Source of the DNA: an uncultured bacterium
GTDB taxonomy: Bacteria; Acidobacteriota; Thermoanaerobaculia; Multivoradales; JAHZIX01
Direction: 5' to 3'
Length of the DNA: 64,000 nucleotides
Assembly (NCBI GenBank): GCA_965368975.1
Contig: CBDUPA010000001.1
Span: 448,001-512,000, forward strand
The translations under genes were made by a program, and so were the position numbers. The notes below the pieces were generated by a model. That model was given only the letters and a program-made list of their open reading frames with translations. It had not been told where the DNA came from and ran no database searches. The number at the start of each line of letters is the position of its first letter. Positions within the stretch are counted from its first letter, which is position 1. Below are positions 26,030 through 39,228 of this stretch, piece after piece.

Positions 26030-28360
26030 TCACAAGATCTCGACCTCCACAGGTCCCTTGATGCGCGCCATGCAGGCCAGGCGGCAGTCTTTGCCTTCCA
26101 GGCCGCACAGATCCTCCAGCGTCTCGACTTCGCCCGCCGCGGCTGGGGTCTCGACGTTCTCGAGGCCGGCGACGATGCGGATCGGGTCGCTGCCGCAGAT
26201 GCCGGAGTGGCACTCGGCGTTGATGCGGATGCCGTGCGCTTCGGCGACGTCGCACAGGGTTTGGCCGGGGAGCACCGGTAGCGGGCCGCCGTGACCGCGG
26301 AAGGTGACGCTGGGGCCATCCGGGGCTGGACTGCCAGCCGCGGGGGTGGCTGCGGGCTTGACTTCACTGACCGGTCTCGGTGGTGCCGGGCCGGAGGCGT
26401 CGAGGACGGCGTCGGGGTCCTGGCTGAAGGCCAGGTTTTGCTGGCCGAGCTGGAACTGGTCGCCGTGTTCGAGCTTGACGGCGCTGCGCACTCGGAGGTA
26501 AGTGCCATTGGCGCTCTTCAGGTCCTTGACCAGAACCCGCGCCTTCTGATCTGCCCCTCGCTCGACGGTCAGGGCGAGGTGGCGACGGGAGAGGGTGCCA
26601 TCCGGGCCGAGGGTGATGTCGGGGGCGCGGCGGCCGAGGACGAGGGTGCCGTTGGGGAGAGGGTGCTGGCCGATCTCTCTGCCTTCGGCGTCGAAGTGAC
26701 GCAGAACCAGGTCTCCGTGCAGGTTGCCGGTGGCATCGGCGTCGGCGAGGAGCAGGAACTGGCGGCCGGCGCGCAGCAGGTCGCCGGCTTCGAGGGGCAG
26801 CTTGCGGCGGGCCGGGACGCGCAGGAAGACGCCGGTGTTGGAGCCGTCGTCGCGCAGGAAGGTACCTTCGTCGGTGGCGGCGATGGAGGCGTGGCGATTG
26901 CTGAGCAAGGGGTCGGCGGGGAAGTTGAGGTCGCAGTCCTGACGGCCGAAGGTGACGACACTACCGGGGGCGATCGGGTGTTCTTCGCCCTGGACGTTGC
27001 CGGGCAAGAGTTGCACGATGGCGGCGTAGCTGTCGGCCGGGTGCTCTCCGGCCGGTTCGGTGGCGCCGGCCGCTTCCAGGGCTTCGGCGAGGTCCTCGCG
27101 CTCGAGCCGGGAGGTGGAGGTCGCGACGCTGGTGCGGCCGAGGTGGGCGACGGGAGACTCGGCGGCGCCTTCGAGGTCGTCGGCGTCAGCGACGGTGAGG
27201 TCGATGTCGCTCTTACCCTCGAGGCGTTGGCGCACCACCTGGGCGATCAGGACGCCGTCGCGCAGCGCACTCTTGATGTTGCCACGGTGGCGGATCTCGC
27301 GGAAGCCGGCGGGGTCGGCGTCGAAGTCGTCGGTCTCGAAGTAGGCCTGGCTGAGGATGTCGCCGGCCAGGTAGACGTGGGGCAGGGCCGTCTCGAGGTA
27401 GCGGTTGGTGACCATGCGCTTGCGGTTCTTGGGGCCGCCGGTGACCATGGCGATGCCGAACGAGGCGAGCAGGCTCTCGGGGATGTCCTCGCCGATGCAG
27501 GCGATGCAGCTGTCCTTGGGGAATTCGAGGTGCGACGTCTCGGCGGGGCGTCCTTCCATCTTGCGGCGATCGACCCGCACGGCGAGGTACTCCTGGCGAT
27601 CGTCGCCGACCAGCACGGCGGCGGGCTCGCTGTTCGGGTAGTAGCGGATGTTGCCGTTCCCGACGTAGGCCTCGAAGAAGACTTCGGCCAGGGCCTTGGA
27701 TACCCGGGGCATCTTGTCGCCGCGGTAGGACCAGTAGATGGCGCTGGGGTCGCTGGCCTGGGCCTTGGCGTGTGAGATGGCGATGACGGCTTCGGCGGCC
27801 GAGGTGCCGCCGCCGAGGATGCAGGTGGGGCGGCCGACGTAGGTGGCGGGGTCGTCGAGACGGTGCGGGATGCCCTCGGTGTTGCCGGGGATGTCGAAGC
27901 GGCGCGGCACGCCGCGGCCAATGGCGAGCACGACGTGGCGGGCCAGCAGGCAGCCGTCGCAGCGCTGGCCGTGGTCCCAGATCGACGCCTCGTAGATGTC
28001 GTGGCCGCGGGCATCCGGGCGGCGGCTCAGACCGGTCAGCTCGATGCCCAGCCGGCGCGGCACGGCGCCGCGGCCGTAGTGCCCCTTCCAGGTGGCGCAC
28101 ATGTCGTCTTTGTCGATCGGTGAGAAGCGTAGCGCGTCGATCAGCTCGCCGCCACGGGGGAAGCGCATGCGGTCGCCGCCGCCGAAGCTGGGCAGGATGA
28201 GCTTGTCCTTGGAGTAGTCGCGGATGCGCTTCATCAGGTCGTCGTATTCGATCACCAGCGCATCCAGCCCCAACTCGCGAGCACGAAAGGCAGCGGCGGT
28301 GCCGGCGGGGCCACCACCGACGATCAGCAGGTCCAGGACGTGTTCGGTCGGCGCACTCAT
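26030..28360 (-). CDS. FAD/NAD(P)H oxidoreductase (TrxB/FNR-like) fused to two FHA domains and a [2Fe-2S] ferredoxin
   Basis: GGGPAG, GGGTSAAE and YLAGD motifs; FHA motifs FGR..SNRH and LGR..SRRH..SANGT; C-terminal CHSGICGSD...CRLAC. Confidence 0.88.
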   Translation of the reverse strand: MSAPTEHVLDLLIVGGGPAGTAAAFRARELGLDALVIEYDDLMKRIRDYSKDKLILPSFGGGDRMRFPRGGELIDALRFSPIDKDDMCATWKGHYGRGAVPRRLGIELTGLSRRPDARGHDIYEASIWDHGQRCDGCLLARHVVLAIGRGVPRRFDIPGNTEGIPHRLDDPATYVGRPTCILGGGTSAAEAVIAISHAKAQASDPSAIYWSYRGDKMPRVSKALAEVFFEAYVGNGNIRYYPNSEPAAVLVGDDRQEYLAVRVDRRKMEGRPAETSHLEFPKDSCIACIGEDIPESLLASFGIAMVTGGPKNRKRMVTNRYLETALPHVYLAGDILSQAYFETDDFDADPAGFREIRHRGNIKSALRDGVLIAQVVRQRLEGKSDIDLTVADADDLEGAAESPVAHLGRTSVATSTSRLEREDLAEALEAAGATEPAGEHPADSYAAIVQLLPGNVQGEEHPIAPGSVVTFGRQDCDLNFPADPLLSNRHASIAATDEGTFLRDDGSNTGVFLRVPARRKLPLEAGDLLRAGRQFLLLADADATGNLHGDLVLRHFDAEGREIGQHPLPNGTLVLGRRAPDITLGPDGTLSRRHLALTVERGADQKARVLVKDLKSANGTYLRVRSAVKLEHGDQFQLGQQNLAFSQDPDAVLDASGPAPPRPVSEVKPAATPAAGSPAPDGPSVTFRGHGGPLPVLPGQTLCDVAEAHGIRINAECHSGICGSDPIRIVAGLENVETPAAAGEVETLEDLCGLEGKDCRLACMARIKGPVEVEIL

Positions 28361-28382
28361 GGTCGTCTCCGTACTCTCGTGC

Positions 28383-37306: not shown

Positions 37307-39228
37307 GGCTGACTCCTCCCGCTGATCGCGTCGCCCGCTGTGGTTTCCGCCGCGTCGCTCGCCGAGTCAGGGGCGTCTGTGGTGTGCTCGGCTTGCTGCG
37401 CTGGTGCCGCGGCGTGCAGCGGTATCTCGACATCGGTCTCCCACAGCACCAGGTGGCCGTCGACCACACGCTCGGCGACCTCGCGTGCGCTCAGGAAGTA
37501 GTCGAAGCCGACACCCTTGATCTCGTTGACCAGATTGACCGGCACCATGCCGGCGATCAGTTGCACACGCGCCCGGTACGGGCCATGTCCGGTCAGCGCC
37601 TCGGGCTCGATCTCGTAGCTGCCGATGCGGTTGCCGCCGGGGGGGATGCCCTGCTTGTGCTTGCGGGCACCGCGCGGCCGGCCGGTGAGGATGGTCGAGG
37701 AGGTCGAGGGGCGTAGGAAGGGCAGCGGGTCGGGCGAGAAGTTGAGCGCCAGCACCTGTTCGCGCTCGCCGCCGCGCACCATGCGGGTGAGGAACTTGGA
37801 CTGCAGGCTGAGCAGGTACTCGTCGCGTGGTAGCTCACCGTTGTGCACGTAGAGGCTGTGGCTGTCGCGCAGGTCGCCGTTGGGGTCGAGGTCGCCGGAA
37901 ACGAAGACGACGTCGCCGTTGCGGTCGGTCACGGTGACGCGCACGAAGACCAGCCGCTCGGCGTCGAAGCCGGTCGGCACGCCGTGGCCGTTGGTGGCGT
38001 TGACCACTTCCACCTCCAGCTCGACGCCGCGTCGCTCGTCGGCCCGGCGCACCTGGATCTCACCGAATTGGTAGCCTGCCTGCAGCACTCTGCGACGCTG
38101 GCGGTTGGCTTCTGCGAGCAACTCCAGGTTGTCGTTCAGGATGTCGCGCGCATCGTAGCGGTCGTCGGCCGAGGTCCAGCGCTCGGGGAATTCGAAGTCG
38201 TCCGGTACCTGGTCCTCGAAGTCGTCGGTGCCCCAGCCGGCCTGCCAGTCGAAGCTCAGCCACTCGCGGATGGTCGCCAGCTCGGAGGCCTCGGTGTTGT
38301 GCGGGAAGATGCCCGGGTGGACGACGGAGTAGTCCGGTCCGATGAACATGTGGTCGGTGCGCTTGCGCACCATGGTCGGACGCCCGCCGACGATCGCAGC
38401 CGGCTCCTGCCGGTAGCCCGACGCGACTCCCGGTTCGACGCCCATGTGGCAATCCTGGCAGGACACCTGCTCGCGGGCCGCCGGCGAGTTCTTGTACTCG
38501 CTGAACGCTTCTTCGAGACGGAAGCCGTTGACCAGGTTGACGTCGTGGCAGGTGCCGCAGAAGCCCGAGGTCGAGATCTGGAAGAACTTCTCGGCTCCGG
38601 TGTGGATGGCGCGGCCAGCGCGCCCACGTTCGGTATTGACGCGGTACTCGCCGCTGTCGATCACGCGCGCCAGTTCTTCGCCGCCGGTCGGTCCGTAGAC
38701 CGGCTCGAAGAGATCGCCCTCGACGATCGCCAGGCGGCCACTCAGCTTGCCGTACTCGTTGTTGACCCGATGGCAGACGATGCACGTGACGCCCTCGCGC
38801 GACGTCGGGTGGCGGTCCATGTTGCTCATGAACTCGGGCTCGCCCAGGTTCATCCCCACCGGTGTGTGGCAACGGATGCAGAAGTCGCCGTTGGTGCCGT
38901 TGGTGATCTTCAGGACGGTGCCGTGCATGGCATTGAAGATCGGGCTCATCTGGGCGTACGAGTGCGGTGACACGGACCATTCACGGTAGTGGTCCGGGTG
39001 GCAGGTGGCACAGGTGGTGGCGGAGGGGAAGCGGTTCTCCAGGAACAGCTTGGCGTGCTCTTCGTCGGCGCTGAGGGGCGCGCTCTCGTCGCTGGCCGGG
39101 ATCAGCGACTCCGGGGCGGGATCGTCGGCGAAGGCCCACAGGTTCAGGGCCAGTACCGTCAGCGTCAGGACCACCAGGGCACTGCCTGCGGCGCGGCCCG
39201 AAGTGGCGAGCCGGGTCTGCTTTTTCAT
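37303..39228 (-). CDS. Exported pentaheme cytochrome c (c552/c554-related)
   Basis: Signal peptide; CATCH, CIRCH, CIVCH, CGTCH, CQDCH; C-terminal GHGVPTG Ig-like region; GGGAG RBS. Confidence 0.92.
   Translation of the reverse strand: MKKQTRLATSGRAAGSALVVLTLTVLALNLWAFADDPAPESLIPASDESAPLSADEEHAKLFLENRFPSATTCATCHPDHYREWSVSPHSYAQMSPIFNAMHGTVLKITNGTNGDFCIRCHTPVGMNLGEPEFMSNMDRHPTSREGVTCIVCHRVNNEYGKLSGRLAIVEGDLFEPVYGPTGGEELARVIDSGEYRVNTERGRAGRAIHTGAEKFFQISTSGFCGTCHDVNLVNGFRLEEAFSEYKNSPAAREQVSCQDCHMGVEPGVASGYRQEPAAIVGGRPTMVRKRTDHMFIGPDYSVVHPGIFPHNTEASELATIREWLSFDWQAGWGTDDFEDQVPDDFEFPERWTSADDRYDARDILNDNLELLAEANRQRRRVLQAGYQFGEIQVRRADERRGVELEVEVVNATNGHGVPTGFDAERLVFVRVTVTDRNGDVVFVSGDLDPNGDLRDSHSLYVHNGELPRDEYLLSLQSKFLTRMVRGGEREQVLALNFSPDPLPFLRPSTSSTILTGRPRGARKHKQGIPPGGNRIGSYEIEPEALTGHGPYRARVQLIAGMVPVNLVNEIKGVGFDYFLSAREVAERVVDGHLVLWETDVEIPLHAAAPAQQAEHTTDAPDSASDAAETTAGDAISGRSQP

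Follow-up and report, generated by a model that had tools for sequence, protein, structure and literature searches.

A putative second, FHA-equipped subtype of the ptd multiheme operon in an uncultured acidobacterium, and a proposed NAD(P)H-fed electron path across its cell envelope

Results

We have examined a 64,000-nt stretch of DNA from an uncultured bacterium of the Acidobacteriota (contig CBDUPA010000001.1 of assembly GCA_965368975.1, positions 448,001 to 512,000), hereafter the window. Positions 26030-39228 of the window are filled by eight minus-strand open reading frames (ORFs), all co-oriented, that encode multiheme cytochromes, an outer-membrane barrel, a membrane protein, and iron-sulphur (Fe-S), FHA and flavin proteins (g1 to g8, Table 1). 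The ORF coordinates bear out the compact arrangement described in the original prediction, an analysis of the sequence that preceded this one, with junctions of at most 36 bp: 4-nt overlaps occur at g1/g2, g3/g4 and g4/g5, where the ATG taken as the start of g5 overlaps the g4 stop codon, and the remaining gaps measure 36, 1, 33 and 22 nt. The 23 c-hemes predicted at the same time correspond to 23 CxxCH motifs, five in g1, eight in g3 and ten in g6. The G+C content is 0.68-0.70 inside the cluster and 0.59-0.67 in its flanks. One flank holds genes for a PIN toxin, a CsgG/TPR lipoprotein and an M12 peptidase, and the other a phosphoenolpyruvate synthase gene, hemB and hemL; since these genes are unrelated to the cluster, its boundaries were placed at the ends of g1 and g8.

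Table 1. Genes of the cluster, listed in the direction of transcription
Gene	Product	Position in the window	Strand	Length (amino acids)
g1 (PtdA-like)	putatively secreted pentaheme cytochrome c, c552/ExtKL-like family	37303-39228	-	641
g2 (PtdB-like)	outer-membrane beta-barrel, predicted ~18-20 strands	35849-37306	-	485
g3	octaheme cytochrome, doubled PtdD-type (c554-like) tetraheme module	33419-35812	-	797
g4 (PtdE-like)	cytoplasmic, two CNB-fold domains and a four-cluster ferredoxin-like domain	31713-33422	-	569
g5 (PtdF-like)	FRD-like membrane protein with four transmembrane helices, likely di-heme b carrier	30985-31716	-	243
g6 (PtdG-like)	decaheme cytochrome c, one N-terminal transmembrane anchor, hemes periplasmic	29361-30983	-	540
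g7	cytoplasmic FHA-FHA protein	28383-29327	-	314
g8	flavoprotein of TrxR fold (FAD, NAD(P)H), then two FHA domains and a ferredoxin-like C-terminus (probable 2Fe-2S)	26030-28360	-	776

The gene content of the window resembles that of the ptdABCDEFG operon, named in a 2024 preprint (bioRxiv 10.1101/2023.11.21.568154). According to that text, PtdA is a pentaheme cytochrome with a beta-sandwich, PtdB a porin, PtdC an FAD/NAD(P) oxidoreductase, PtdD a tetraheme cytochrome, PtdE a cyclic-nucleotide (cNMP)-binding Fe-S protein, PtdF a ferric-reductase-like membrane protein and PtdG a decaheme cytochrome; the carriers are Alpha- and Gammaproteobacteria, Nitrospirales and Planctomycetes of saline habitats. 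Common to both layouts are a c552-related pentaheme cytochrome, an adjacent porin, a c554-like module, a cNMP Fe-S protein, an FRD-like protein, a decaheme cytochrome and an NAD(P)H flavoprotein. Like PtdA, g1 has five heme motifs and matches cytochrome c552 (5ze8); g2, like PtdB, is a porin directly following the pentaheme gene, and g4, g5 and g6 show the domains of PtdE, PtdF and PtdG in the published order. The original prediction knew of no system with this layout. In fact the layout had already been named, but what the available part of the preprint offers is a description without experiments.

The window departs from the published operon in several respects. The place of the tetraheme PtdD is taken by g3, which is homologous to it but has two modules and eight hemes. 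PtdC, a protein of the ferredoxin-NADP reductase (FNR) kind, lies between PtdB and PtdD, whereas the window has instead g8, a flavoprotein of thioredoxin reductase (TrxR) fold with two FHA domains, at the 3′ end of the operon. The window adds the FHA-FHA protein g7, to which nothing corresponds in the operon as far as the accessible preprint text describes it, and that text attributes two clusters to PtdE, while g4 has 16 invariant cysteines, enough for four. The carriers of the FHA-equipped form (Acidobacteriota, Rhodothermales/Bacteroidota, KSB1, Calditrichia and Myxococcota) are not among the taxa listed in the same portion. A search of the preprint text, its supplementary Tables S7 and S8 lying outside the search, gave no occurrence of FHA, and a literature search whose coverage left out most subscription journals returned no paper on an FHA-bearing subtype and no experiment on Ptd.

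Two forms of the cluster could also be told apart in metagenomes. We scanned metagenome contigs with the g1 alignment, which yielded at least 574 g1 relatives, and kept 80 loci. The 31 of these loci that contain a g4 relative split into nine of type A and 22 of type B. Type A loci are window-like: their g4 is 50-62% identical to that of the window, the octaheme is complete, and g7 and g8 are present where the contig reaches. Type B loci have the published order, that is, g1, g2, a gap gene, a tetraheme gene, g4, g5 and g6, and the identity to the window proteins is 55-67% for g1, 37-47% for g2, 26-35% for g4, 25-36% for g5 and 24-30%, over part of the length, for g6. In locus L133 the gap gene encodes an N-terminal hydrophobic helix and FAD_binding_6, NAD_binding_1 and Fer2 domains with a canonical C-x4-C-x2-C site; the type B reductase also matches 'Ferric reductase NAD binding domain'. 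Used as a tblastn query, the L133 protein had matches in 26 of the 80 metagenome loci, but none in the 80 loci collected from species genomes with g5 (see below) and none in the window. Type B clusters have no FHA protein, yet they keep the redox chain and an NAD(P)H reductase. Judged by gene content and homology, the window therefore appears as a second, FHA-equipped subtype of the named but uncharacterised ptd ('penta/tetra/deca-heme') operon. We further propose that the products of this subtype together form a single electron path, fed by NAD(P)H and spanning the entire cell envelope, a reading to which we give a probability of roughly 0.55.

That the genes belong together was examined across species genomes; failure to co-occur elsewhere had been named by the original prediction as a finding that would refute it. 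A g5 alignment was run against 185,579 species genomes and returned 97 relatives, from which 80 loci were kept; synteny was determined by tblastn with the eight proteins, and 47 of the 80 loci had enough flank on both sides. All eight genes were found in the window order in 20 of these 47, so that this refuting outcome did not arise. Individually, g6 was present in 46, g7 in 43, g4 in 42, g8 in 41, g3 in 35 and, always as a pair, g1 and g2 in 27. The core of the system is g4-g8, and the outer module g1-g2 is optional. By record title, the carriers are Acidobacteriota (Thermoanaerobaculia, Holophagae, Vicinamibacterales and Sulfidibacter corallicola M133), Rhodothermales and other Bacteroidota, KSB1, Calditrichia, Ignavibacteria, Myxococcota and Nitrospirota. 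The FHA subtype is complete in the closed genome of the cultured S. corallicola M133 (L007), and the paper describing this species contains neither 'multiheme' nor 'FHA'. The genome of the window carries a single g5 copy.

Some loci are arranged otherwise. Beside the g4-g8 core of loci devoid of g1-g2, three other proteins recur: one of ~1240 amino acids that combines LVIVD repeats with cytochrome c3 motifs (14 loci), one of 589 amino acids that belongs to no family (15 loci) and one of ~560 amino acids that is HbpS-like (10 loci); ORFs with a type IX secretion sorting tail recur in the same loci. This set, which may be an alternative outer module, is found in L006, L010, L011, L016, L020, L021, L025, L036, L052, L066, L067 and L076, among others. 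Two copies of the core cluster occur on separate contigs of one assembly in some genomes (L006/L011, L027/L035 and L038/L044). In a third arrangement, shown by L108, L124 and L125, g1-g2 are preceded upstream by two genes, one similar to g8 or g4 and the other to g6, and in L106, L121, L129, L143 and L155 the inner module is divergent from g1-g2.

We next describe the outer module. The g1 protein begins with a hydrophobic segment that, judged by eye, looks like a signal peptide, so that g1 is probably secreted. It is the most conserved of the eight proteins (55-81% identity across phyla), all ten of its heme cysteines are conserved at 100% in an alignment of 31 sequences, and its sole sequence match in the Protein Data Bank (PDB) is cytochrome c552 (5ze8, E 2e-11). 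A c552/ExtKL-kind pentaheme is likewise encoded beside a porin gene in the ExtHIJKL conduit of Geobacter, and a long beta-hairpin is described as conserved in the pentaheme (PHC) family (PMC11976967). Unlike the window, the Ext conduit has no inner-membrane or cytoplasmic module described in the available part of that article. Against the ExtKL model NF040886, g1 scored 29.8 bits, below the curated cut-off of 250. ExtKL is, by its NCBIfam name, a selenoprotein family, whereas no selenocysteine codon was seen in the g1 relatives: selenocysteine read-through was considered for their in-frame stops and rejected, these being true gene ends overrun by the extension of the ORF.

No Pfam or NCBIfam family was assigned to g2, which ends in LVFKF. 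Its AlphaFold2 (AF2) model (pLDDT 79.8, pTM 0.77) has 19 long strands, and a Foldseek search of the PDB with this model gave 223 matches at E≤1e-3, headed by the 18-strand porins MOMP (5ldv, 9.6e-12), AlgE, chitoporin and OccK. These matches agree with the predicted outer-membrane porin fold. g2 directly follows g1 in 51 of the 52 metagenome loci long enough to tell. Moreover, in L064 (2490-5870, 1126 amino acids) and L068 (2528-5902, 1124 amino acids) both form a single open frame with no stop and no N. These loci are Vicinamibacterales chromosomes in which the barrel part lacks a signal peptide of its own and g7 lies upstream of g1; as both come from one order, the two fusions probably represent one event. 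An apparent fusion in L058 proved false, since it contains an internal stop.

Contact between barrel and cytochrome, the other structural claim made for this module, was addressed by predicting the complex of g1 residues 38-598 with g2 residues 53-485 in three runs, alongside three controls. The complex scored 0.87, 0.87 and 0.86, and the best control 0.00, these scores expressing the confidence of the model and being no measurement; 58 of 80 solved complexes and two of 110 mismatched pairs attained the mark that this pair passes, counts that are rough because our own alignments were used. The runs share at least 90% of their contacts, with a partner pLDDT of at least 85. In the models, every second residue on nearly all barrel strands contacts g1, whose residues ~480-534, a conserved Arg/Lys-rich stretch without CxxCH, take part, and patches of the g1 heme domain touch the pre-barrel segment 54-87 of g2. 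From this list of contacts, g1 would be seated at the periplasmic mouth of the barrel with its heme-free loop in the lumen. Such a placement agrees with the order of the fusions, cytochrome first and barrel second, and with the hairpin reported for the pentaheme family. The prediction and the two fusions thus lend the proposed contact its support. We know of no solved complex of the g1/g2 family.

Regarding the periplasmic cytochromes, g3 comprises two c554-like modules joined by low-complexity linkers (Pfam Cytochrome_C554, E 2.6e-24, two stretches). Its halves align to each other at E 7e-14, and each aligns to the 338-amino-acid tetraheme protein of L133, the N-terminal module with 40% identity (E 5e-74) and the C-terminal one with 30% (E 7e-19). 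By these alignments g3 is a tandem duplication of a PtdD-type tetraheme module. Nearly all of its heme cysteines are invariant in 37 sequences. As for g6, Lys and Arg residues precede a transmembrane (TM) segment at 32-63, and all 20 heme cysteines are conserved at 100% in 71 sequences.

The membrane protein g5 gave no Pfam or NCBIfam family above threshold. It contains four hydrophobic segments and two H-x13-H pairs, H54/H68 and H222/H236, as the original prediction had it; four TM helices hold for the window copy but are not the norm of the family, whose members mostly have five, the first being the one missing here. All four histidines are conserved at 100% and H208 at 99% in 81 sequences; W50, G93, G96 and W218 are invariant or conserved at 95% or more, and a putatively cytoplasmic domain of ~115 amino acids is conserved too. 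The AF2 model has a pLDDT of 86. Pairs of histidines ~13 residues apart on two TM helices are a trait of the FRD superfamily, and below threshold g5 relatives touch DUF4405 (12 of 17), Ni_hydr_CYTB (8 of 17) and Ferric_reduct (PF01794; 4 of 17 at E≤10, best 4.5e-5, under the 28-bit cut-off). One of the ESM Atlas neighbours, at 0.90, is a cluster that bears the automatic name 'Ferric reductase like transmembrane component', to be taken as a lead only. With its signature and its conserved histidines, g5 is a likely di-heme b carrier, in line with the predicted di-heme b protein. By our own application of the positive-inside rule, H54/H222 would lie near the cytoplasm, H68/H236 near the periplasm, and the 115-residue loop in the cytoplasm.

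The g4 protein has no hydrophobic N-terminus and matches cNMP_binding (Pfam, E 7e-25, two stretches) as well as several 4Fe-4S families. Its 16 cysteines, in four groups, are invariant in 64 sequences and therefore fit four [4Fe-4S] clusters; an additional CxxCH (C530) falls inside one of these groups. Among its PDB relatives are the four-cluster wires HycB3, ArrB, NrfC/PsrB-type proteins and FdnH, along with the tandem cyclic-nucleotide-binding (CNB) domains of PKA-R. CNB domain 1 keeps the Gly-Glu and Arg-Thr-Ala elements at 90% or more, as compared with a PROSITE-like cNMP motif, and from these residues cyclic-nucleotide binding is plausible for at most one of the two domains. At E≤1e-3 the g5 family comprises 5388 cluster representatives, a figure that takes in relatives from outside this type of cluster, and among the best 150 of them three (P0118, P0150 and P0148) carry cNMP and Fer4 domains fused N-terminal to the g5 domain, an arrangement that metagenome gene-calling errors could mimic. 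These fusions tie g4 to g5 and place the Fe-S domain on the cytoplasmic side, which upholds the proposed Fe-S relay to cytochrome b. Other members of the family, of 470-880 amino acids, have long extra parts with no Pfam match (P0182, P0186, P0224, P0237, P0240 and P0219).

The porin-cytochrome conduits known so far, such as Mtr and Pcc, receive their electrons from the quinol pool, and the conduit of the window could do so as well, g5 or g6 taking up quinol electrons while g4, g7 and g8 act as regulators or as a minor side input. The inner-membrane proteins of PCC3/PCC4 (He et al. 2017, PMC5566968) span the membrane five times and carry SGxxG on TM4 and Wx3Hx13H on TM3 and TM5; they were likened there to FRD and cytochrome b, and a quinone-linked role was proposed for them. 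When compared by motif, the g5 family bears the same signature (W50..H54..H68, S-G93-x-x-G96 and W218..H222..H236), the window copy lacking TM1. In g6 the first CxxCH motifs lie close behind the single TM helix, and g8 is missing from six of the 47 full-flank loci. Against a quinol feed stand the absence of any significant NapC/NirT match (Pfam, NCBIfam) at the g6 N-terminus and the fusion of g4 with g5 in three proteins; a four-cluster wire with 16 invariant cysteines would also be a high price to pay for regulation alone. In addition, NAD(P)H flavoproteins that end in a ferredoxin-type domain have been recruited twice, from unrelated folds. We therefore hold quinol feeding to be unlikely and keep to NAD(P)H as the source.

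That flavoprotein, g8, matches Pyr_redox_2 (2.7e-17) and FHA (2.3e-19, two stretches). It conserves GGGPAG, for FAD, and a second dinucleotide motif, GGGTSAAE...YWSYRGD, while C717, C722 and C763 in its ferredoxin-like C-terminal domain are conserved at 98%. Its PDB relatives are low-Mr proteins of TrxR fold, including YpdA/Bdr and TrxR-type ferredoxin-NADP reductases. A TrxR-like disulfide mechanism was rejected for g8, the residues of the C134-x2-C137 pair being conserved at only 13% and 5% in 55 sequences. The strongest argument that the link to NAD(P)H is real is that two unrelated flavoprotein folds, each with a ferredoxin-type end, serve the two subtypes. The original prediction had connected an NAD(P)H flavoprotein to this chain, and this recurrence takes the connection beyond an accident of neighbourhood.

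The same chain might run inwards, from a low-potential external or periplasmic donor to cytoplasmic NAD(P)+ or another acceptor, for which the Hmc, Tmc and Dsr-type complexes of sulfate reducers offer an analogy. TrxR-type and FNR-type enzymes can work in either direction, and direction is not readable from sequence. Nevertheless, electrons moving inwards run against the membrane potential, and the FNR plus Fer2 architecture seen in type B is that of NAD(P)H-oxidising reductases, which pass electrons from NAD(P)H to an acceptor; for these two reasons outward flow is favoured. The carriers, moreover, include aerobes and nitrite oxidisers. On the other side, a g1 relative from T. tepidum reportedly has a low potential and a connection with sulfur metabolism (PMC11976967). 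On balance inward flow seems to us quite unlikely, and we retain the outward, NAD(P)H-fed path.

Finally, we considered regulation. g7 consists of two FHA stretches (Pfam, E 4e-29) with conserved GR, SxxH and SRNG/SRNH elements, and all four FHA domains of g7 and g8 keep the Arg, Ser, His and Asn elements for phosphothreonine binding, according to the residue pattern of such domains. Among the 44 loci that extend 2.5 kb or more past g8, 17 have a Pkinase gene no farther than 3 kb from g8, six have a PP2C gene there and 19 have one or the other. In total, a Ser/Thr kinase family member occurs in 26 loci and PP2C in nine. The claim that the FHA domains are signalling modules is strengthened by the residues they keep and by these neighbours. 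The presence in a single operon of four FHA domains and two domains of CNB fold, and a kinase or phosphatase gene adjoining in those 19 loci, would also suit a redox sensor, in which the heme chain reports the redox state outside to the FHA, kinase, phosphatase and CNB modules and bulk flow is not the purpose. But 23 c-hemes, two b-hemes and four to five Fe-S clusters far exceed known sensors, and type B clusters keep the whole chain and the reductase without any FHA protein. ptdAB were, furthermore, reported as highly transcribed (10.1101/2023.11.21.568154). Of the explanations weighed here the sensor is the least probable, and we return to the electron path as the preferred one.

The only kinase-like match in the window lies at 3.9-4.8 kb, within an ORF of 840 amino acids (2588-5110), and has 26-32% identity to Ser/Thr kinases. 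An ORF upstream of g1 (39427-40197) was considered as the kinase found at the equivalent place of L003, and it is not that kinase. Between g8 and the M12 peptidase gene there is a stretch of lower G+C (0.59-0.61; 23413-26030) with a PIN-domain gene (25238-25660, minus strand), a small ORF upstream of it that is a possible antitoxin (25657-25935, minus strand) and a CsgG/TPR/SHOCT protein (23915-25183, plus strand). This stretch may be an insertion or replacement at a site occupied in other genomes by genes for a Ser/Thr kinase or PP2C. Genes of the CsgG/TPR kind are also found close to the cluster in L015, L025, L036, L042, L043 and L051, in five of them after the kinase downstream of g8; the CsgG/TPR gene of the window is on the opposite strand and gave no tblastn match at 1e-4 to those genes. 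On the other side, hemB, encoding 5-aminolevulinate dehydratase (ALAD), and a hemL-type class-III aminotransferase gene (42933-45290) lie 3.7 kb upstream of the cluster, which would need 25 hemes. A DUF6851 and vanadium-chloroperoxidase-like protein is encoded on the minus strand at 17281-19545.

Discussion

From the parts, their conservation, co-occurrence and fusions, the barrel fold and the complex prediction that passed, we infer the following scheme, including the binding of cofactors, the order in which the carriers act, the outward flow, the acceptor and the mode of regulation. NAD(P)H would be oxidised at the FAD of g8, and the electrons would move one at a time to the ferredoxin-like domain at the C-terminus of the same protein. 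From there the four [4Fe-4S] clusters of g4, docked at the conserved 115-residue cytoplasmic loop of g5, would bring them to the membrane, and the b-hemes of g5, on H54/H222 at the cytoplasmic and H68/H236 at the periplasmic side, would carry them across it. The periplasm would be crossed by way of the anchored decaheme g6 and then the flexible octaheme g3. At the outer membrane, g1, sitting on the periplasmic mouth of g2 with its basic, heme-free loop in the lumen, would hand the electrons to an acceptor that reaches it either through the barrel or at it. By way of the four FHA domains, the input step would depend on Ser/Thr phosphorylation, and a small ligand could provide a further input through the CNB-fold domains in g4.

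This scheme overlaps with several known systems and coincides with none of them. MtrCAB of Shewanella consists of MtrB, a 26-strand sheath around a decaheme wire, and a surface decaheme. It shares with the window the concept of a periplasmic multiheme cytochrome bound to an outer-membrane barrel, but g2 belongs to the 18-strand class, the insert of the barrel is predicted to be heme-free, and no lipoprotein cytochrome is evident in the cluster. In NADPH oxidase (NOX), ferric reductase and MsrQ-Fre, electrons go from NAD(P)H to flavin, then to two TM b-hemes held by two His pairs, and then to an outer acceptor. In the window, by contrast, the flavoprotein is separate, a 2Fe-2S domain and a four-cluster Fe-S protein would be interposed, and the electrons would be received by a series of 23 c-hemes that terminates at the outer membrane. 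PCC3/PCC4 of Fe(II) oxidisers combine a porin, multiheme cytochromes and an inner-membrane protein with the signature, as the window does, but no cytoplasmic Fe-S or flavoprotein partner is described for them in the accessible part of PMC5566968.

A number of observations weigh against the proposed path. Barrel and outer membrane come first: the TM-score of g2 on the query (TMq) to its best PDB matches is only 0.5-0.56, and no MtrB-like sheath appears among the 50 PDB matches listed. Since the predicted barrel insert has no heme motif, a continuous heme wire across the outer membrane, as originally envisaged, is not supported: the barrel has ~18-20 strands and its lumen is, in the model, filled by the heme-free loop of g1. 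The 'surface hemes' of the same proposal have no observation behind them. For g5, the window copy reaches only E 1.2 against Ferric_reduct, and its model has no Foldseek match in the PDB at E≤0.001 (best E 0.21), so neither a significant PF01794 match nor a solved FRD fold is at hand and the di-heme assignment draws on motifs. In g8, the predicted [2Fe-2S] protein, three cysteines of the ferredoxin-like domain are conserved, but Asp725 sits where PtdC and canonical plant-type ferredoxins have the third cysteine, and the Fer2 match stays below threshold (19.3 bits; cut-off 21). CNB domain 2 of g4 lacks the conserved Arg, and the CymA-like layout of g6, a TM helix followed by the first hemes, leaves quinol input possible. 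Neither end of the operon is obligatory, g1-g2 being missing from 20 and g8 from six of the 47 full-flank loci. In the window itself, no kinase or PP2C gene adjoins the cluster, and scans of the cluster for promoters and terminators did no better than shuffles. Lastly, the preprint calls the function of ptd "completely unknown" (10.1101/2023.11.21.568154).

A more specific version of the outward path can be put forward tentatively, as a doubtful but attractive possibility: the cluster would be a two-membrane counterpart of NADPH oxidase and ferric reductase, in which phosphorylation-controlled spending of NAD(P)H reduces a soluble or surface acceptor at the barrel. Candidate acceptors are O2, giving superoxide, chelated Fe(III) or Mn(III), and an oxyanion, and the conserved basic loop of g1 would line the pore. 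If true, the system would be a general, non-respiratory device for 'redox export', serving for instance NAD(P)H-dependent production of extracellular superoxide or reductive metal uptake, an idea suggested by the many marine and soil aerobes among the carriers.

Taken together, what is new here with respect to the named operon is a subtype linked to FHA domains and kinases and spread over a wide range of taxa, the swap of its reductase, two fusions, the predicted cytochrome plug and a cultured carrier. The fusions and the predicted plug of cytochrome in the barrel constitute concrete structural hypotheses. The FHA subtype gives a clear regulatory handle, and its cultured carrier with a closed genome makes Ptd function directly testable. 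The system is common, as judged by the g1 relatives found in a single metagenome scan, and if a conduit drew on NAD(P)H by way of Fe-S clusters and a di-heme b protein, reducing power would leave the cell by another route than in the conduits known so far.

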